Assembly: GCA_050951805.1 (NCBI GenBank)
Contig: JBMNJT010000002.1
Location: forward strand, 1,472,001 to 1,536,000
Source of the DNA: Bacillota bacterium
GTDB lineage: Bacteria > Bacillota > DTU025
DNA: 64,000 bases
Direction: 5' to 3'
Shown: positions 21,567 through 32,177 of the stretch, piece by piece
Numbering within the stretch: the stretch's first letter is position 1
Layout of the letters: the number at the start of each line of letters is the position of its first letter
Notes under the pieces: generated by a model
The model's input: only the letters and a program-made list of their open reading frames with translations
Database searches by the model: none
Told to the model about the DNA's origin: nothing
Translations under genes and position numbers: made by a program

Positions 21567-22334
21567 TTAGCCCCAAAAACTATCAGTGTCAACGTTTGCC
21601 GTATCCACATCTACGTTCAAGTCAACGGCCTCAAGCCTTCGCTCCCGGGACAGCCTGCTCATTTCGACCGCAAAAGCTGCGTAATTCAGGGACCAATGCG
21701 CTATCCACGGGTATGCCAAGCCGCCACTTTCCACCGTGATCCACCCTAAGGCAAGGCCCACAGTGATGGGCATGAGGAGTGCGTACGAGGTAATGCTGTT
21801 AGGAGCTTCCACTAAAGCCATTGGAATCCCATGAACCAGTCCGAACAAAACCGCCTGCACAACTAGGCCATTTGAAAGGCTGCTCCGTTTCGATATGGTG
21901 CGGAGCAGAAAGCCCCTGAACACGATCTCTTCAAGAAGAGCGCCCGAGGCTATAAAGGGAACCGCAAGAACGAGAGCAGTCCATTTTGGCATGCCGGAGA
22001 GAGCAAGGTACGCCCCTCCCGGGTTGATGCCAGCACCCTTCATCCATTCGCCGTGCGATTGCCGGAGCCTAGCATGTGCCCACAGATTTGCCAAGCCTGC
22101 CACCACAACAATCAGCCCGGTGTAAACCGCCATTTCCCAACTTGCCATGCCCTCCACTATTCGTAAAGAGTTGGCCGGATCCTCTCTTCGCACGATCCAG
22201 ACCCCTGCGAAGATAGTCAGAAGCAGGATGTCTCCCAGATCGACTCCTGGTTGTCCACGTTCATGAAGTTTTTGCGCATATGCCCTTACAGCTACCGAGA
22301 TGCCTACGATGATGTAACAAATGACTGAGCTCAT
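21567..22334 (-). CDS. CPBP (Abi/CAAX type II) intramembrane metalloprotease
   Basis: EEIVFRG, FGLVH and HWSLN motifs; multiple TM segments; ATGA overlap with the radical SAM gene. Confidence 0.88.
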   Translation of the reverse strand: MSSVICYIIVGISVAVRAYAQKLHERGQPGVDLGDILLLTIFAGVWIVRREDPANSLRIVEGMASWEMAVYTGLIVVVAGLANLWAHARLRQSHGEWMKGAGINPGGAYLALSGMPKWTALVLAVPFIASGALLEEIVFRGFLLRTISKRSSLSNGLVVQAVLFGLVHGIPMALVEAPNSITSYALLMPITVGLALGWITVESGGLAYPWIAHWSLNYAAFAVEMSRLSRERRLEAVDLNVDVDTANVDTDSFWG

Positions 22335-23794
22335 AGCATGGCAACCTCTGACAGAGCTCGCAGCAGATTAGACGACGTCGTACGGGAATCATCCCACGTC
22401 CATAGAATGCTGGATATAAAGATTCTATATGCTTCACACATCGGATCACGCCCGTACAGACTTCCGCTCGCTGCATACGCGGCAGCCCTGCAGCCCCCTC
22501 CGCACAAGTAGCGAACATCGCATTCGACGCAACCTTCTATTCGATCAACCCCAGGAACGTCCCAGAAAAGCTCCTTCAGATCCCCACGGCCGCAAGCGTG
22601 AGCCTCCTCAACTCTTTTCAGTGTAGGCCGCCGAGGCGGCTCAGAAATGTCGTAAAGAGTAGCCGCAAACTCTGGAATCATCAGAAGATGGCATGGGTAT
22701 GCATTGCCTGCCCCCGAGAGTGCAAAAACCTTCGACCCCGCCCCACACCCTTCTCTCGGGACTAGCCCCACTACATCTTCGAACGACGAATCCTCCGGCA
22801 AAGCATTCCTGTGGCACGCCCTCAGAAGATAGCGCAACATCGCCTCCGCAAGATCCTTCGGACACTTCCTGCGTCCTTTTAGCCGTGAACATGCTCCTCG
22901 ACCAACCTCCTGAAAAAGGCTGGCATGGAATGTCGCTCCATGCTTCGATGCAAGCTCAATCATGTCGTCTGGATTGAATGTCGCTGGGTCAACAATGGTT
23001 GACACAAGCTCAACGTGCTCTGTACCGGCACGCACGAGCCTCTCGATGCCCCTAATCGCCGCCTTGAAGCTTCCTTCGCCCCTGATCATATCGTGTGCAG
23101 CCTCATCCCCTGAATCTATGCTCACCTGGACACAGACCCCCAGAGAGGCTATTGCTTCAGCCATTTCCTGCGTTATCAGTGTAGCATTGGTAGCTAAAAT
23201 CACCTTGGGAGCATTGAATGTTGCCTCCTCGAGCAATACAGGAAGATCTGCCCTGAGAGTAGGTTCACCCCCAGTGATCATCAGCTCCGCCGGACGAAAC
23301 ATCCCTGCCTCTCGTATTGTCCAAAGCACTGACTCAGTTGGGGCGTCGTTTTCGAAAGCATGTCTGTAGCATGTCTCACAGTATAGATTGCACCTGTCCG
23401 TAACGGAAACATATATCCTAGCAGGCGCGGCACAAACCTGAGCGGCCCTTTTTTCTGCCGCCGCTACGTCCGATTTTCCGCCTCCATTCCAGGGCCCGTA
23501 GACGAGCAATCCTCGGGCTTCCAAGTCGCGCATCAACCCCAATAAGCCATCTAGCGTCTCCTTTCCGTAAGCCGGCCCTACAGAATCAGTTATTCCTTGA
23601 ATATCGACTCCGAGGAACCTCTCGCACATCACGCCTGCATAACGGCTGACCTTCACCCAAGTTCCGAGCGTCGGATTGAGAATGAGACAAGCTTCATCTG
23701 CATGAATCATCCGTGCATCCGGCGCTAGAGAGTATCCCAACAATTCGGAGTTCATCAGCGAAAAGGCGGTTGCGCCCCGCCAACATCGGGCCAC
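22331..23794 (-). CDS. Radical SAM/SPASM peptide maturase with N-terminal RRE (PqqD-like) domain
   Basis: CNLYCETC, TGGEP; SPASM cysteines CGAG...YPCH...CVECDVRYLCGGGC...C; ~100-aa RRE-like N-terminus; start uncertain. Confidence 0.88.
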   Translation of the reverse strand: MARCWRGATAFSLMNSELLGYSLAPDARMIHADEACLILNPTLGTWVKVSRYAGVMCERFLGVDIQGITDSVGPAYGKETLDGLLGLMRDLEARGLLVYGPWNGGGKSDVAAAEKRAAQVCAAPARIYVSVTDRCNLYCETCYRHAFENDAPTESVLWTIREAGMFRPAELMITGGEPTLRADLPVLLEEATFNAPKVILATNATLITQEMAEAIASLGVCVQVSIDSGDEAAHDMIRGEGSFKAAIRGIERLVRAGTEHVELVSTIVDPATFNPDDMIELASKHGATFHASLFQEVGRGACSRLKGRRKCPKDLAEAMLRYLLRACHRNALPEDSSFEDVVGLVPREGCGAGSKVFALSGAGNAYPCHLLMIPEFAATLYDISEPPRRPTLKRVEEAHACGRGDLKELFWDVPGVDRIEGCVECDVRYLCGGGCRAAAYAASGSLYGRDPMCEAYRIFISSILWTWDDSRTTSSNLLRALSEVAML

Positions 23795-23937
23795 ATCGCC
23801 GCCCTACTCCTCCCTTCAAAGCCACAGCGCGCGCACATAGGCGCGGGAACCAATCTCTTGTGATTGGCCCCCGCTGGCACAGTTGGAGCTACGCCCGCTA
23901 ATGGATGATGGTGACTAGTAGTCTGGGGAAACGAAGA

Positions 23938-24039
23938 TCATCCAATGGTGAGCATCACGCCCCAAAGCGGAAACGAAAAGCAGAAGCTGTTGACAGAGAC
24001 ATTCAACCTATGCTTACGACCTGCCTGAATGCGAAACAT
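23938..24039 (-). CDS. Putative RiPP precursor peptide, 33 aa: MFRIQAGRKHRLNVSVNSFCFSFPLWGVMLTIG
   Basis: Strong RBS GGAGGTG, own promoter, immediately upstream of the rSAM/SPASM gene. Confidence 0.72.
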   Translation of the reverse strand: MFRIQAGRKHRLNVSVNSFCFSFPLWGVMLTIG

Positions 24040-24107
24040 CCATTTCACCTCCCTCGATGCTACAATCGGGTAGATGGCGACCACGCCACGGCGCCGCTTG
24101 CACCCAC

Positions 24108-24152
24108 ATAGTACCATCGCAGGGAGCTTAAGGGTATTGCCCGAAAGGATGA
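24108..24152 (-). promoter_or_regulatory. Activator-dependent promoter of the peptide gene with a putative LuxR/NarL-family box
   Basis: Extended -10 TGGTACTAT, no -35; imperfect palindrome TCATCC-TTTC-GGGCAA (24137-24152) centred near -43. Confidence 0.45.
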
Positions 24153-24154
24153 TT

Positions 24155-24673
24155 TTACGGGCTAGGAGGAGGTGACCAGCTGTCCAACAATCCGGCAGCA
24201 ACCGCCAGCCTGACTGCCGACCCCCGGGTGTGCACTCCCAGTTTTTGATATATCGAACGAATGTGAGTTTTGACGGTATTTATCGAGATGAACATCTCCT
24301 CAGCTATTGCCCTATTGGTCTTGCCCTGAGCAAGAAGGTTCATCACTTCAGTTTCGGTAGGGGTTAACCTCGGAAATTCTCGCTCCTCAATGGACGAAAG
24401 CTCGACATCATACTCTGCTAAAGCAATATCAATTCCTTCGTCGGATGGCTCAGCCCCAAATTCCTCCCCCCTCGCTAGAGGATATACGCACAGCAGGAAC
24501 ATCCCTGCCGCATCTGCAAACGCAGGAAGCCTGCCCCGCATCAATACTGGGCTGCGCAAGGCGGCGGCATGAGTCTCTCTGCAGTGCAATCCCGAATTCT
24601 CAAATGGTCCAGACGGTTCAAACTCCAAAGGCCCAACTTCACCACGAACCGAACGTCCCCCTGAGCTCGACAT
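24155..24673 (-). CDS. LuxR-family HTH transcriptional regulator (no receiver domain)
   Basis: LTPTETEVMNLLAQGKTNRAIAEEMFISINTVKTHIRSIYQKLGV. Confidence 0.88.
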   Translation of the reverse strand: MSSSGGRSVRGEVGPLEFEPSGPFENSGLHCRETHAAALRSPVLMRGRLPAFADAAGMFLLCVYPLARGEEFGAEPSDEGIDIALAEYDVELSSIEEREFPRLTPTETEVMNLLAQGKTNRAIAEEMFISINTVKTHIRSIYQKLGVHTRGSAVRLAVAAGLLDSWSPPPSP

Positions 24674-25390
24674 GGAAAATCCCCCCTCCTTATGAATTTC
24701 CGTCGCCTAGAAAGCAATCCAAGAAGAATCGTGCCCCTTATGACAACAATCACCATAAAGAGTATAGCATCCCATGCGTTACCAGTCAAACATTCCCTAA
24801 TCTAGGCTCTGTTACCTGCTTTCGATGGACTTCGATGTATTCCTCAGTCGAACGTATTATCTTGTGGAAAGCCTCATACTGATTAGGATAGACGTCCAGT
24901 CCAACGATTTCGAGGCCTCCGCTACTCGTCCCCGTCCATTGGCGTGCAGAAGCTCCGCCTTGTAGCTCCGGCTACATCGCCCCGGCGGGTGGACCACCTG
25001 ATTAAGTGCCGACAGGAATAACATGCCGTAGCGCCTGGCCAAGAGATCATAACCGACCTCTGAGCCAGGCACAAGGGAATGCGTAGTAAGTGATCATGTC
25101 TTTTACACGGTTCTCGGCATCTGGTTTCGGCACATGAACCCCAGCGGGTTTCGAAGACCAGACATGTATCGCGCGAAAGTCAACAGAAGTCCATCCGGCC
25201 CCTCAGATGAGTTTCGCCTAAAAGCCGCCATATCCATATCTCCCCCACAGCGTCACAAACCTGCTACTTACACAGGTTACGTGGAAACCCCGCTACTGCG
25301 TAGGGTCGGGGAGCACCCTATAAACAGGCTAGCTTGAAGCCGTCCTCGTCCTTCCTACGTGGAATTACTTCTCATTGGCAGGCCAAAACT

Positions 25391-25720
25391 TCAAAAACCT
25401 GTCAGCGAATACTGTGGCTGCAGAAGATAGAGGTCGCATTCATCCTGGAAGAGCACGTGATTTCCAGCCGCTGGTGAACTCAGGGCCTCCGTGATTGCGT
25501 CCATTTTGGCCATCGCCTGCAGATCATATACTCGTTTTGACGCATGCGGTGGGCGACTATGCCGATATCCAAGAGATTTCAGTAGGTTATACATCATGGC
25601 TAAACTGATTTCGACGCCATGTTTTCATAGACACTGAACATCCGCGCTATCTTGGTAATGCACCAGCCCAGGCTCGAAATCAAAACCATCTGGGCACTCA
25701 GTGATACTTCTTCTGCGCAT
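25391..25720 (-). pseudogene. IS630-family transposase remnant
   Basis: GVEISLAMMYNLLKSLGYRHSRP (winged HTH) ...AKMDAITEAL...VLFQDE (first Asp of DDE); in-frame stop; truncated. Confidence 0.65.
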
Positions 25721-26223
25721 GGCCCAAAACATTGAAACCTCGCACTTGCCAAATTCTCTTGCAAATCGCATTTACACTGTGCTTCCTGTCACCATATAGG
25801 CGCTTTCAGGCATTACAGAGCACAGTCAAAAACCACGCAGGACAGGCGGTGATAGATGTCGGCATACAACGGGTGCTAAAGGCCTTTCAGACTATCCGAT
25901 GAAGTAGCTTGGCCGAGCATCTCTGGTTCTTGTAGCAACACCCTTAACATTGATTAAAAAAGACAGGGAAACATCCCCTGCCTACTCGTATTCCGGCAAG
26001 GACAGTTGGATGGGAAACCCTTGCAAAGTCAGTTCCCATCAACCCCCTGCTTTTCTTCATATCCCTTCGTCTTCCCACAGCATCCTAGACTGACGCGCAC
26101 CACGGCCTGAGATACCCACCCGAGGCAAACCCTTCATGCCTAGTCTAGGCGCGAAGGCCTCACCGGGGTGTAGCTTCGTTCTATCGACACAGACCGCGTT
26201 CTGGCATGATCGTTCAAAGGAGC

Positions 26224-28423: not shown

Positions 28424-30829
28424 TCATATCGTCAAAACTTCACATGATTTTGGTATCTGCTCTGCGAACTCCAATCCGTCCAATACTAATATTACCTGCC
28501 TTGTTCGTCCAAGTTTCTCCAGAGCGGGCCAAACAAGGGTTAACCCTTGGTATGCCGACTTGTGCCCTACCCGTCCGCCTTTACCCTTAGAAGAATAGTC
28601 AATTATCAAAGGGAGAGCGCCTCTTCCGTATAGAACCTCGCTGGCGCCAAGCCGAACAGCGAGAACAGCCACAGGAATCAACGACTCCGAGTCAGCTGCC
28701 CTCGGGAAAGAGCATCTGACGCAGTCTTCCTCAACCGCACAAGAGATTTCTGCCGTAGGCTCGCCCGTAAAAAATGCCATGATATCCGAGGCAACCTCCG
28801 CTAATCTTGCCCCAGCTTGCGCCCGTTTTTCTTCGATCATCTCCTCAATGGCTGCCTGTGCTAAGCTAGCCGCGAGCCCCTCACGCCTAGCACGTTCCAA
28901 TTCCGAGGCGGCTCGCGCTGCCTCACTCGATACCTCCCAAATGTCTACACCTGCCAACGCATGTTCTGTATCTGCAAGTTCCAAAGACTTTTGCTCCAGT
29001 TCGAGAGCCAACCGCTCCCGCTCGTCTGCCTTTATCGCGTATTCCTCGCTCAGCTCCCAGATCTTTTCCTCGATCCTGCGATCGGCAATGGCTGCGCGCT
29101 GAGCCTCTGCAGAAGCAATCTCTTCAAGCACGATCTCGATGTCACGCTCTATACTTTCCCGAGAGCGCCCGCCCAGTGCAGCCTCTAGCCTGTCGGCAGC
29201 CTCTCTGTAGGATGCTTCAACCCTTCGATAGTCCTCGTATGCCTCAAGATACATCGAAGGAGAAGAAAAACCAGACACCTTCATCAACTCGCCCATGCGC
29301 TCCTTAGCCCGCCATGTCCTGACCCGATTCAAGTCCGCCTCGTTCCTCAATCGAGCAAGTTCACCTGACAGAGTTTTGATCTCCTCCAGCAGACACTCTT
29401 TTTTCTCCTTAAGCCACTCCATCTTCTCCACGGCCAGCGCATAGTCGTTTATGGACATGTCGTGCAGCAACGAATCGAGTCTCCTTCTGTGCCATGCCAC
29501 CTGGCTCGAAAGATTGGCCCGATCGTGCTCCAGTCTCACCTTTGCACCATGTTTGGCATCCAGCTCTATCCCCGTCGAAACCCCATAGACCGTGCACATC
29601 AAGCCAGTGGAAAGCAGCAAAATCAGGACTCCCATCAGCGGCTCAGACAAGCTCATCCACGGAAAGATATTCTCTGGAAGGAGAAGCCCAGTGAGAGACG
29701 TGACGGTCAAGAGTGCCCCTCCCACAGAAAGGCCATCGGCGAGTCTCTTGCGCCCAAGGACCTTGTCAACCTCTGCAATTCGTTGCGACAGACTTGCAAG
29801 ACGAGTCTCCCTGTCTTCGATCTCTTTCAAGGAAGATTGCGCATGCTCCAGCGTCCTGCGGGACAATCCTCTTTGTTCCAGCTCCTCGAGGTCTTTGCTC
29901 GCCAGGGCAAGCTCCATTCTGAGCCCATTTATTGCAGACGTAATACCCGACTGTTCTGATTCGTACGATATCGCTGTCTTCTCCAGCTCAGACATTTCAG
30001 ACATCAGATTCCTTATCTCGCCCGCAACCTCAGGGTCAAAAGCCCCTTCCATACCAGAATACTTGAGCAACCTGTTTCTGGCCTTTTCCGCAGCTTTCTC
30101 CGTCACCAACACGTCGGCGAGATTGATCCGCCATGATTCGAACTCCTGTTTCAAGAACCCCACATACTCCTCGATTTCATCGCATTCCACCTTGGTCCGT
30201 AGAGCCGCATCTATGGAGGATATCCTCGAATCAAGAAAGGATAACCTCTCAACAAGCCAAGCGATTCTGGCTCTCAGTTCCGCCCTTTTTATGCGCAGGT
30301 CCACAACGCGCTCCACCTCGCGCCTGAGTTCAAAATAGGCATTTTCCGCTCCTGAATCGCTGCTTATTCCATCCAGAAGGGAAATAGCCCTCTCGTATCG
30401 CCTGCCATTATCGCCCATGAGCAATCTGACAGGCACCGTCCACGCCCCACACTCAGCCGTCCCATCATCGCTGCAAGCCAGATCGGTTTCGGAAAGGCCC
30501 ATGGCTTCGGCAATGGGGACAGCAATCTCTGTGCCCATGCCTGTATCGAAATCCACAACCCTCACTGACGGTTGCGATAAAGAATCGCGCACAAGCATGA
30601 CACGCCTGTGATTGTCATCGATGACTGTCACAGATATTCTGCCGCCCTTCTCGACACGCTTGGTCCGCGCCTCAATACCAACAACGCCCATAGATTCCAG
30701 AGCACCGAGGAAGATCAGACGAATCTGAGGAGTACTGGCCAAAACTACTGAAAAGCCCTTAGCAAATTCCGCTTCAATCGTCGGGCCGCCTTTTCTCGCC
30801 GCAACCAACAGCTTCTCGATCATCACCAC
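28424..30829 (-). CDS. YhaN/SbcC(Rad50)-like long coiled-coil protein with central TM hairpin and degenerate ABC-ATPase motifs
   Basis: Extensive coiled coil, two central hydrophobic helices, C-terminal LAVRLG...LPLIID...QVIL; overlaps the Mre11-like gene. Confidence 0.7.
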   Translation of the reverse strand: MVMIEKLLVAARKGGPTIEAEFAKGFSVVLASTPQIRLIFLGALESMGVVGIEARTKRVEKGGRISVTVIDDNHRRVMLVRDSLSQPSVRVVDFDTGMGTEIAVPIAEAMGLSETDLACSDDGTAECGAWTVPVRLLMGDNGRRYERAISLLDGISSDSGAENAYFELRREVERVVDLRIKRAELRARIAWLVERLSFLDSRISSIDAALRTKVECDEIEEYVGFLKQEFESWRINLADVLVTEKAAEKARNRLLKYSGMEGAFDPEVAGEIRNLMSEMSELEKTAISYESEQSGITSAINGLRMELALASKDLEELEQRGLSRRTLEHAQSSLKEIEDRETRLASLSQRIAEVDKVLGRKRLADGLSVGGALLTVTSLTGLLLPENIFPWMSLSEPLMGVLILLLSTGLMCTVYGVSTGIELDAKHGAKVRLEHDRANLSSQVAWHRRRLDSLLHDMSINDYALAVEKMEWLKEKKECLLEEIKTLSGELARLRNEADLNRVRTWRAKERMGELMKVSGFSSPSMYLEAYEDYRRVEASYREAADRLEAALGGRSRESIERDIEIVLEEIASAEAQRAAIADRRIEEKIWELSEEYAIKADERERLALELEQKSLELADTEHALAGVDIWEVSSEAARAASELERARREGLAASLAQAAIEEMIEEKRAQAGARLAEVASDIMAFFTGEPTAEISCAVEEDCVRCSFPRAADSESLIPVAVLAVRLGASEVLYGRGALPLIIDYSSKGKGGRVGHKSAYQGLTLVWPALEKLGRTRQVILVLDGLEFAEQIPKSCEVLTI

Positions 30830-32177
30830 GGAATACCTCCCCAAGAGCAGAGAGTCCCAACGCTAGAGCGCAATCCACGACCTCTTTCCAGCGCTCAACT
30901 CGATATGGATTGTCAACATGGCTCCGATCGCCCGAACCCTCACTTTCGGGACGCCGCGCCTTAAAGCTAGACTCGGGCGAGTCCTTTTGCCCCGCAAAAG
31001 ACCCGGGAGCTGCCGCATTAGCCTCCTCGGACTGCGTCAGTAATGCTATCATCTTGGCTGTGAAAGTTTGTTCCGCTTCGAGTAGATCCCTCTCAAGCGC
31101 GTCCATCCCGGTGCAATTGGCATGATAGTTCTTCCCTGCAGGTTGATCTGTCCTGGGCAGACGCACTTCCTTCCGTGTACTGCCACGGCCCGGTCTCCTC
31201 CTATCTTCGCCCCTAGGCCCCCTCACCACCAATTCTGTGCGGTCGGCAACTTCGAGATGGAAAAAGCGATCCTCAAATTCTCTCGCCAGCCCTGCCAAGA
31301 TGGGTCTGAGAGCCGGATCCACGCGTCCCTCCAGTTCAACCCTTAAGCACAGCTCAGCATTGGCCATGTCACTCAGGCGTTCTCGAATTTCCGCTCCCGA
31401 CTTTCCCGCAATGTCGACAGTAATGACTCGATGCTGCCGACTAGGAACCTTCATGGGGTTTACGCGAGTCCCATCTTCACGCAGACTCACGAGAAGTGCG
31501 TGCCGTTCACCTCTCGTATCAAAGTTGAGGTGTACCGGTGACCCCGAATACCAGCACGTCGCCTTTCCCACCGAGCAATTGACCATGTTATGGTAATGGC
31601 CTAAGGCCAAGTAATCGAGGCCAGACTGTGAAAGCGCATCGGGCGAAATAGGGCATATCGAAGAATCAAGCCCAGGAGTCCCAGCGAAAGTACCATGCAT
31701 CAACCCTACATGCATCCCCGAGCCCTCCACAACCAGGTTGGAAAGAACGGGCATAGTGGAATTCCGAGAAGTAGTCCTCAGTCCCCATACAGTGACCCCC
31801 GGAAAAGGCGAAACGGATGACCATTCCTCTGCCATGAAAAGATGAACATTCTCCCCAGAGCAAGCCTCCCGAAGCAGCTCCAAACCTCCGCTTTCTTCTG
31901 CTTCTCCCGGAGTAACCGCGACAAAAATCGAACTCCTGCCAAGCCTTGCAAACCCATTACGGACCTCTTCAACTACCGAGTCGGCCACTGAATCCGCACA
32001 GATCAAATCCCCCGGAATCAGCACCAGTCTCACATTGAGCCGGATTGCTTCACTCACAATGAAATTGAATGTATCCACCAGTTCCCGACGGCGTACAGCG
32101 CGAACATCTCGTCTGTACTCGGTGAGCACGTGGTCGAGGTGAAGGTCGGACGTGTGCAGAATGCTCACAGGTTCCAA
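30774..32177 (-). CDS. YhaO/SbcD(Mre11)-like metallophosphoesterase
   Basis: ILHTSDLHLD, PGDL, HGT, YLALGHYH and YSGSP motifs; GNHD motif replaced by GEAE. Confidence 0.82.
   Translation of the reverse strand: MEPVSILHTSDLHLDHVLTEYRRDVRAVRRRELVDTFNFIVSEAIRLNVRLVLIPGDLICADSVADSVVEEVRNGFARLGRSSIFVAVTPGEAEESGGLELLREACSGENVHLFMAEEWSSVSPFPGVTVWGLRTTSRNSTMPVLSNLVVEGSGMHVGLMHGTFAGTPGLDSSICPISPDALSQSGLDYLALGHYHNMVNCSVGKATCWYSGSPVHLNFDTRGERHALLVSLREDGTRVNPMKVPSRQHRVITVDIAGKSGAEIRERLSDMANAELCLRVELEGRVDPALRPILAGLAREFEDRFFHLEVADRTELVVRGPRGEDRRRPGRGSTRKEVRLPRTDQPAGKNYHANCTGMDALERDLLEAEQTFTAKMIALLTQSEEANAAAPGSFAGQKDSPESSFKARRPESEGSGDRSHVDNPYRVERWKEVVDCALALGLSALGEVFRGDDREAVGCGEKRRPDD

Follow-up and report, generated by a model that had tools for sequence, protein, structure and literature searches.

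A candidate four-gene cassette for a radical-SAM-modified peptide of an undescribed family in uncultured Bacillota

Introduction

Among the described systems for peptides that are made on the ribosome and modified after translation (RiPPs), skfABCEF is the nearest in gene logic to the locus studied here, and CteB is the nearest in enzyme architecture. The locus lies in a 64,000-nucleotide stretch of a Bacillota genome (assembly GCA_050951805.1, contig JBMNJT010000002.1, positions 1,472,001 to 1,536,000), hereafter the window, and is a member of neither system. We read its four genes as a cassette whose product is a ribosomal peptide, modified by a radical S-adenosylmethionine (radical SAM) enzyme and belonging to a family not yet described, and we put the probability of this reading at roughly two in three. 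On the minus strand, sequence reading gives the order regulator, 33-codon peptide open reading frame (ORF), radical SAM enzyme and CPBP protease.

The skf cluster of Bacillus subtilis (skfA, skfB, skfC, skfE/F) likewise joins a short precursor, one radical SAM enzyme and a putative membrane protease. SkfC belongs to the CAAX/CPBP family, and SkfB carries a [2Fe-2S] N-terminal domain, not a RiPP recognition element (RRE) and a SPASM region. According to PMC8172795, SKF has a single Cys thioether made by one radical SAM enzyme, together with an ABC export/resistance pair, and PMC10114670 describes SkfB as a twitch enzyme. An ABC pair is also found in the fuller versions of the present cassette, in relatives from the families f5 and f132. 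In contrast, SkfA is longer and has several Cys, SKF has a disulfide and head-to-tail closure, and the present cassette has no counterparts of skfG/H. SkfB is among the top structural and profile matches of the window enzyme, but its match is limited to the radical-SAM core (profile positions 115-357, against 26-433 for CteB).

The CteB/CteA (thermocellin) and Tte1186 SCIFF systems share with the window enzyme the same RRE, radical SAM and SPASM build and the same seven SPASM Cys. CteB formed one Cys-Thr thioether in vitro, as reported in PMC8172795; an invariant Cys and an invariant Thr are present in our peptide. However, the SCIFF precursor has six Cys against one here, and neither a SCIFF model nor any other TIGR model matches the peptide. 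This agrees with an earlier note, made from the sequence alone, which had called the peptide clearly unlike SCIFF. To our knowledge, SCIFF loci have not been described together with a CPBP protease and a GerE-type regulator.

Streptosactin is under Rgg/SHP quorum-sensing control in streptococci. Its system, GggA/GggB, is described in PMC8172795 as giving small unnested sactionine rings with a Cys-X2-acceptor spacing. The spacing Cys20-X2-Phe23 is invariant in our peptide family, and StsB is the second best NCBIfam match of the window enzyme (100.5 bits). Nevertheless, the StsB cut-off of 625 is not reached, and the streptosactin precursor is a different one, with two Cys donors where our peptide has one.

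The epipeptide operon of B. subtilis (yydFGHIJ/epeXEPAB) resembles the cassette in having a peptide, a radical SAM enzyme, an intramembrane protease and an ABC transporter. Its membrane protease EpeP is thought to cleave the peptide and to help export it (PMC10885120). The likeness is one of layout; EpeP is an M50 metalloprotease and not a CPBP protein, and the chemistry is epimerisation. Mycofactocin shares a short peptide substrate in which the C-terminus matters, and MftC is the top curated model for the window enzyme. The RRE is fused to the enzyme here, whereas MftB is separate. We rejected membership in the mycofactocin family, as the curated MftC (102 bits against a cut-off of 265) and MftA models fail and no other mft genes are neighbours.

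CPBP proteins of the myxosortase type act on a short segment with an invariant Cys next to hydrophobic and basic stretches, according to PMC11980579 and bioRxiv 10.1101/2023.06.07.544157. In contrast to our peptide, these tags terminate large surface proteins at the C-terminus, and their elements run the other way round (Cys, helix, basic tail). A link between CPBP sorting systems and radical SAM enzymes, considered at first, was dropped, as the term "radical SAM" is absent from the three myxosortase papers found. We found no publication on systems combining a CPBP or CAAX protease with a radical SAM enzyme and a precursor peptide or RiPP.

Peptides modified by RRE-bearing radical SAM/SPASM enzymes are known. 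What is new here is the precursor family and the unassigned clade of enzymes; the company of a CPBP protease and a GerE regulator and the pattern of inheritance are unusual for such systems.

Results

A conserved gene for a 33-residue peptide

The candidate precursor gene and its ribosome-binding site are located as follows.

23938..24039, minus strand: precursor peptide gene, 33 codons plus stop (alignment of 27 copies, substitution pattern, predicted complex)
24046..24052, minus strand: Shine-Dalgarno sequence GGAGGTG, 6 nt 5′ of the peptide ATG (sequence reading)

The peptide, MFRIQAGRKHRLNVSVNSFCFSFPLWGVMLTIG, runs from an ATG at 24039-24037 to a stop codon at 23940-23938. The earlier note had pointed to a small ORF with a strong ribosome-binding site directly upstream of the maturase gene, and we find it as described, with GGAGGTG at 24052-24046. 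The same motif or a close variant (GGGGGTG, GAGGAGG) stands within the 30 nt before the start in 19/19 loci. In a second set of loci, the same type of Shine-Dalgarno sequence was present among the loci listed, except L039, which gave no match.

All 27 aligned copies of the peptide are 33 residues long, and M1, G7, C20, F23, W26, T31 and G33 are invariant among them. Pairwise differences per site were 0.396, 0.272 and 0.571 at codon positions 1, 2 and 3, respectively; the third position varies most. The invariant residues are encoded by 2 to 4 synonymous codons each, Trp having one codon. Conserved with synonymous variation at invariant codons, the small ORF is a real gene, and the substitution pattern indicates that the peptide is under purifying selection at a fixed length. 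In the RNA libraries of three studies, position 24016 reads G and not A, at the third position of the Arg8 codon. As this change is synonymous, strains differ in DNA but keep the peptide.

The N-terminus of the peptide is basic and the C-terminal 20 residues are hydrophobic in the alignment. We divide it into a putative leader of about residues 1-18 and a putative core of residues 19-33, FCFSFPLWGVMLTIG. The core has one Cys, the invariant Cys20, at a strictly fixed distance from the C-terminus; the possible acceptors F23, W26, T31 and G33 are likewise invariant. Positions 21, 25, 30 and 32 are always aliphatic or otherwise hydrophobic, and position 29 is Arg in part of the family only. The window peptide has no Pfam match. 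Two chance matches aside, none of the NCBIfam peptide models matched any of 17 peptides (17/17) at E<=10.

An RRE-radical SAM-SPASM enzyme outside the curated families

22331..23794 (longest ORF), minus strand: RRE-radical SAM-SPASM enzyme (Pfam, cysteine pattern, structure model, homologues)

The longest ORF starts at GTG 23794 and encodes 487 residues, whose numbering is used here; from ATG 23755 the protein has 474 residues. The ATG is most likely the true start, because GTG 23794 is not conserved in the same-genus relative L002, although the DNA around it is 84% identical, and because the N-termini of the family align to MNSELL. The RRE spans residues ~18-102 (23489-23743), the CX3CX2C motif residues 135-142, and the SPASM Cys residues 350-453 (22436-22747). 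Pfam Radical_SAM scores 79.8 bits (cut-off 29.5), and C135, C139 and C142 of the motif are invariant in 13/13 aligned family members. The same alignment of 13 has seven invariant SPASM Cys (C350, C368, C422-x2-C425-x5-C431-x3-C435 and C453) and no conserved eighth. In a profile alignment, these seven Cys align with those of CteB.

In the AlphaFold2 model (mean pLDDT 79.6), residues 18-93 form four strands (18-50) followed by three helices (51-93), which suggests a recognition-element type of fold for the N-terminal domain. The best Foldseek matches of the model were CteB, SuiB, SkfB, TigE and anSME, with CteB and SuiB aligned over their whole length. CteB was the best match by structure in the PDB (E 1.4e-15), at an identity of ~15-16%. 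It was also first by sequence profile (E 1.3e-30, positions 26-433, from chain residue 16), ahead of PqqE, SkfB and anSME; the profile match to SuiB (E 1.1e-9) covered the radical-SAM core only. A precomputed PF05402 match was present on 3/11 close homologues, and the homologues L059 and L093 reach Pfam SPASM. The PqqD-like N-terminus that the earlier note had described is supported by the modelled fold, the full-length Foldseek matches to CteB and SuiB, the CteB profile match and PF05402 on homologues. The invariant His290 was first read as aligned to an auxiliary-cluster ligand of anSME; on a recount of the ligand positions, the Cys in question is no ligand, and we make no claim on this residue.

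The best NCBIfam matches of the enzyme were MftC (TIGR03962, 102 bits, a full-length alignment), StsB (100.5) and WgkB (97.8), against cut-offs of 265, 625 and 650, respectively. PapB scored 75.9 against a cut-off of 340. Thus, the enzyme fits no curated NCBIfam equivalog, including the sacti- and ranthi-synthase families. With scores far below all cut-offs, a peptide that no model matches and no paper found, the system could not be assigned to a characterised family, which leaves the earlier note's suggestion of a new one standing.

Predicted peptide-enzyme complex

The predicted complex of peptide and enzyme, computed with our own alignments, scored an ipSAE of 0.77 (runs 0.77, 0.79 and 0.67), against 0.00 for the best of three controls. 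The mark applied to ipSAE was reached by 116/157 solved complexes and by 2/215 mismatched pairs. The runs agreed in at least 69% of contacts, with a peptide pLDDT of at least 47. The prediction places peptide residues 1-11 at the RRE, while the catalytic cleft takes up residues 19-33. Peptide residues 4-8 are placed against enzyme strand 46-50 and helix residues 83-95. Core residues 19-33 contact enzyme residues 288-293, 336-352, 368 and 431-435, that is, the region of the SPASM Cys. The pair thus looks like a leader-RRE pair in the model, although a prediction of this kind does not show that the peptide binds.

Distribution of the cassette

We searched for the enzyme in 61 genomes, the window's own and 60 relatives, at a threshold of E<=1e-20. 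It was found in 11/11 other genomes of the window's own family (f1), 1/1 of f2, 0/1 of f3, 6/7 of f4 and a few more. Altogether 23/61 genomes matched; 3/23 matches are weak and are likely other SPASM proteins. In tblastn searches and direct translation, the peptide and the GerE regulator were present upstream of the enzyme in 18/18 relatives' loci reaching there; locus L010 starts inside the enzyme gene and is not in this count. When 401 genomes of the phylum were scanned with a peptide hidden Markov model (HMM), 24 strong matches came up, one per genome, in the families f1, f2, f4, f5, f56 and f132. In 12/12 newly found loci, the regulator stands before and the enzyme after the peptide. One further, weak HMM match (E 0.006) lies in a 775-aa frame with neither the enzyme nor the regulator beside it. 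Of 47 database loci chosen by their enzyme, precisely those 15 whose enzymes are closest carry the peptide, against 0/32 of the others. The earlier note had staked its proposal on a conserved small ORF beside homologous radical SAM genes, and such an ORF is there in 18/18, 12/12 and 15/47 loci. At least six taxonomic families of uncultured Bacillota share the gene order regulator, peptide, enzyme and CPBP protease.

In a word-based search covering 5.8 billion proteins, 11 enzyme clusters other than that of the window enzyme reached E<=2e-126, and the next stood at 4e-24; the names given to these clusters are "radical SAM protein" only. A peptide profile search of 1.84 billion representatives gave 12 matches, ten of them true peptides. 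Eight of these ten clusters end in the 33-residue form, one has 34 residues, and one is a 36-aa protein matching from profile position 12. Where named, the peptide clusters are called "hypothetical protein", and most were called too long. Two long proteins (689 and 1089 aa) match the peptide profile in 8 short stretches each. P0062, a 398-aa protein in a peptide cluster, is an unrelated regulator and was set aside. The database records that bear the cassette are metagenome-assembled Bacillota/Clostridia, and many studies have sequencing runs with near-identical DNA, from anaerobic digesters, bioreactors, sludge, sediment and landfill.

No such peptide accompanies the enzymes next in closeness, L061 (32% identity) and L062 (27%), and neither is informative on chemistry. 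In the stretch of L061 that was read, there is no CPBP gene. L062 (3192-10505), from a low-GC metagenome-assembled Bacillota genome, holds a different and larger cluster in which radical SAM and CPBP genes are paired, without the present peptide family. That cluster encodes two tandem RRE-radical SAM/SPASM enzymes (449 and 439 aa), a CPBP protease, an 838-aa radical SAM protein with an N-terminus that looks cobalamin-binding by eye, and a 386-aa protein that looks methyltransferase-like by eye.

Neighbourhood and descent

In f1 and f4, the cassette has an amidohydrolase gene (or other genes) on one side and obg-nadD-yqeK-rsfS-leuS on the other; the neighbourhood in f2, with short flanks, is like these by eye only. 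In f5 and f56, the cassette stands before UPF0182 and OGG. Furthermore, the CPBP gene of f5 and f132 is followed by genes for an ABC ATPase and for a putative permease, a protein of ~260 aa that has no Pfam match. The earlier note's remark that no ABC exporter is adjacent holds for the window copy, but not for these distant relatives. At the place of the ABC genes, f56 has a conserved ORF of ~100-108 aa with no Pfam match, 3′ of CPBP (L094 10589-10915; L096 10923-11225). In f4, a second radical SAM protein is encoded directly upstream of the regulator (L056 4414-5955; also L015, L016 and L020); it has 513 aa, Fer4_12 and Radical_SAM matches, and a C-terminus like that of anSME or SCIFF maturases by eye.

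A maximum-likelihood tree sorts 23 enzymes by taxonomic family: mapping the 6 families onto it takes 5 label changes, the fewest possible. With the labels shuffled, the mean was 11.1 changes, and 0/200 shuffles were as low. f1 needs 2 label changes because f2 nests within it. Since relatives share labels, such clustering is consistent with vertical descent and is not proof of it. Vertical inheritance agrees both with this tree and with the conserved neighbours.

The CPBP protease

21567..22334, minus strand: CPBP (Rce1-like) glutamic-type intramembrane protease, 255 aa (Pfam PF02517, motifs)

PF02517 scores 56.5 bits on this protein (cut-off 22.4). The motif residues E135, E136, F139 and R140 (EExxFR), F164 and H168 (FxxxH), and H213 and N217 (HxxxN) are invariant in 13/13 homologues. 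The start codon overlaps the stop of the enzyme gene as ATGA at 22334-22331. Both the coupling to the maturase and the intact motifs reported in the earlier note are confirmed. The MrtJ, MrtS and MrtA models match weakly, with all Mrt scores under their cut-offs. A CPBP gene follows the enzyme in 18/18 loci reaching downstream and in 5/5 extended distant loci. With no other peptidase conserved in the cassette, the CPBP protein is the obvious candidate for leader removal. A 2023 review of leader peptidases (PMC10885120) does not mention this class (CAAX, SagE and Abi have 0 occurrences).

Regulator, promoter and RNA elements

24155..24673, minus strand: LuxR/GerE-family helix-turn-helix (HTH) regulator, 172 aa (Pfam GerE, 71.4 bits, residues 103-157)
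24761..24789, minus strand: promoter-like TTGACT-17-TATACT, TG-extended, 5′ of the regulator gene (consensus scan, 10/12 matches)
23843..23874, minus strand: conserved intercistronic stem-loop, 13-bp stem, 3′ arm TGGTTCC (12/12 f1/f2 loci)
23765..23781, minus strand: second stem (GGCGG..CCGCC) and TTTT, with its end 9 nt 5′ of ATG 23755 (terminator-like scan)

The HTH of the regulator is conserved, and its N-terminus differs by lineage. In f5 it is a receiver (partial Pfam match). In f132, which gives no Pfam match here, the alignment makes it receiver-like; f56 has a vestige, and f1 has ~100 unrecognisable residues. In the window protein, no known domain matched the N-terminal ~100 aa. Because the N-terminus varies in this way and distant orthologues carry receiver domains, we do not regard the protein as an autoinducer-binding LuxR. 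Of the LuxR regulator in the earlier note, the GerE HTH stands and an autoinducer-binding domain is absent. One RNA-library contig ends at 24731 with adapter behind, which is a weak hint for the promoter.

The hairpins that the earlier note placed between the peptide and maturase genes are there: the stem at 23874-23843 and the terminator-like stem with its T-run at 23781-23765. The first is the same element in 12/12 f1/f2 loci, with a 10-bp consensus stem and 3 pairs showing compensatory changes; the second is conserved in L002. A strong stem-loop lies 3′ of the peptide gene in 25/25 loci (best ΔG -21.9 to -39.8 kcal/mol). Both stems would serve to restrict or stabilise the peptide's message in comparison with that of the enzyme.

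The peptide gene is covered by contigs from three RNA libraries, each of a different study; in two of these studies the contigs are short. One contig of 1381 nt runs from the regulator through the peptide gene into the 5′ part of the enzyme gene. The cover has gaps, for example at 22336-22452.

No Shine-Dalgarno sequence stands directly 5′ of ATG 23755. A conserved GGGAGGAG lies ~55 bases before this ATG, with a conserved stem in between (23755-23830), and folding of the stem would bring the two close. A 13-codon upstream frame ends in TGATG on the enzyme start codon; this frame is not conserved in L002.

Discussion

The genes suggest the following course of events. The GerE-type regulator would drive transcription from the promoter 5′ of its own gene, and the conserved stem-loop after the peptide gene would set the ratio of peptide to enzyme message. 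The basic N-terminus of the peptide (residues ~2-11, with the invariant G7) would pair as a strand with RRE strand 46-50, so that the hydrophobic core (19-33) may sit between the radical-SAM barrel and the SPASM clusters. There the enzyme would install one radical cross-link among the invariant core residues. Leader removal by the CPBP protease would take place at the membrane, with a probable cut near G/S18. Where relatives have the ABC ATPase and the putative permease, these proteins may serve product export or immunity. It is likely that the peptide is the substrate of the enzyme in such leader-guided cross-linking.

Several observations weigh against this interpretation. The modification, the cleavage site and the product are all deduced. 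On the window enzyme, neither Pfam PqqD nor Pfam SPASM was reached at E<=0.1, so these assignments depend on the cysteine pattern, the model and the homologues. The score of the complex may reflect a likeness to the solved CteB-CteA and SuiB-SuiA complexes, which resemble the predicted one, more than a property of this pair. The RNA-library contigs are no proof of transcription, because DNA can be present in such libraries. The mean hairpin ΔG of about -31 kcal/mol is a moderate excess over the control (-20.6 kcal/mol, sd 4.6, n=32), which consisted of 32 random segments from the first eight loci, all of family f1. The whole intergenic fold has a z-score of -0.76; the case for the hairpin is one of conservation, not of energy. 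Regarding the cross-link, thioether chemistry is not implied by family membership, because the scores lie far under the cut-offs for sactipeptide and ranthipeptide maturases. In addition, an aromatic cross-link would suit the invariant Trp and Phe just as well.

For the modification itself, where the earlier note had conjectured one Cys thioether or an aromatic cross-link, we tentatively favour a single thioether from Cys20 to a downstream acceptor. The invariant Cys is the only one in the core, and the SPASM Cys of the enzyme number no more than 7, like those of CteB. According to PMC8172795, an auxiliary SPASM cluster of CteB has an open site that is filled by the substrate Cys, and known thioether acceptors include Phe, Thr and Gly. 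Seven Cys for two clusters are compatible with an open site by analogy, which is no proof of one. By the same analogy, candidate acceptors would be F23 (i+3, streptosactin-like), T31 (CteB/Tte1186-like), and G33 or W26.

The same cassette could instead make an aromatic C-C, C-N or C-O cross-link on Trp26 or Phe23, with Cys20 serving in positioning or cluster binding. Streptide, darobactin and the three-residue cyclophanes are precedents for aromatic cross-links. W26 and F23 are invariant in 27/27 peptides, SuiB (a Lys-Trp cyclase) equals CteB as a structural match, and WgkB, which makes a Trp-Lys link, is the third best NCBIfam match (97.8 bits). However, the WgkB cut-off of 650 is far from met, and the profile favours CteB (1.3e-30) over SuiB (1.1e-9, radical-SAM core only). 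The core also lacks an invariant Lys, Arg or Asn partner, position 29 being Arg only in part of the family. We consider aromatic chemistry unlikely on this balance.

Epimerisation of aliphatic residues, as in YydF/EpeX, or another mass-neutral or unusual chemistry is improbable. In distant relatives, the layout of peptide, radical SAM enzyme, membrane protease, ABC ATPase and putative permease does parallel epeX-epeE-epeP-epeAB, and the constantly aliphatic or hydrophobic positions 21, 25, 30 and 32 would suit such a reaction. But the invariance falls on Cys, Phe, Trp, Thr and Gly rather than on aliphatic residues, which points to specific reactive residues. The protease is of the CPBP class and not M50, and no epimerase family appears among the best 25 of 75 NCBIfam matches.

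We hold it very improbable that a redox cofactor or other small molecule is excised from the peptide, as in mycofactocin or PQQ formation. MftC is the top NCBIfam match over its full length, and the peptide has an Ile/Val-Asp/Asn-Gly-x-Cys stretch before the core, which we take to recall the conserved end of MftA. Order-wide vertical inheritance is also commoner for a cofactor than for an antibiotic. Against this, the MftC score of 102 bits is far under 265, and no MftB/D/E/F-like genes or partner dehydrogenases are adjacent. The MftA model TIGR03969 matches neither the peptides nor the genome, the genome test being weak since its controls were silent too. The membrane protease, ABC transporter and regulator suit a secreted peptide better. 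Hardly any weight falls on a 33-aa product that is a small membrane or regulatory protein travelling with the operon rather than a substrate: its basic N-terminus and hydrophobic C-terminal 20 residues would allow this, but the hydrophobic stretch behind the basic part falls short of a typical membrane helix, an RRE equips the enzyme for peptide recognition, the peptide is strictly tied to this enzyme clade and absent beside the next-closest enzymes, and the complex prediction passes against its controls.

Returning to a cross-linked peptide, its role may be considered, for which the earlier note had conjectured a signal or a bacteriocin. An endogenous signal or physiological peptide fits at least as well as an antibiotic, because inheritance is order-wide, single-copy, syntenic and vertical and the exporter has been lost. 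A protease of a family known for "bacteriocin processing/immunity" and the ABC pair in relatives fit a secreted toxin. A bolder proposal, which we regard as a long shot, is a very small peptide of ~15 residues that carries a single thioether and is closed head to tail through a bond between residue 19 and Gly33, with the CPBP protein as both leader peptidase and cyclase; it would act as a lineage-wide endogenous signal, not an antibiotic, sensed via the GerE/response-regulator protein. The fixed distance from Cys20 to the end, the invariant T31 and G33, single-copy vertical inheritance and exporter loss all point in this direction. If true, it would be the first assigned biosynthetic role of the CPBP family in modified peptides.

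RRE-bearing radical SAM/SPASM enzymes are a proven source of new peptide chemistry, and new precursor families have so far tended each to bring a new cross-link. With 33 residues and seven invariant positions, the present peptide is a small and clean target for co-expression and mass spectrometry. A whole order retains it vertically, in one copy and at a fixed chromosomal place, a pattern that speaks for a role in physiology or signalling and not for an accessory weapon, the same question as for the widespread SCIFF peptides. The host order comprises uncultured bacteria common in anaerobic digesters, bioreactors, sludge and landfill.

Flanking genes and minor observations

In the window, the 3′ flank of the cassette holds obg, a nadD-like gene and genes for an RRM protein and an HD (yqeK-like) protein, followed by rsfS and leuS; an amidohydrolase gene lies on the 5′ flank. 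The gap between the regulator and the amidohydrolase gene (24700-26200, 1.5 kb) has only short ORFs and occurs once in the genome; the corresponding gap in the relative L048 is ~250 bases. Six ORF fragments in the gap have no Pfam match, and one of them, at 25391-25597, may be a decayed transposase.

Further along, 28424-30844 (minus strand) encodes an 806-aa protein with abundant coiled-coil-like sequence and no Pfam match. Similar proteins of ~770-790 aa, also with no Pfam match, are encoded upstream of the cassette in L052 and L053, and in L053 this gene adjoins one for a calcineurin-like phosphoesterase.

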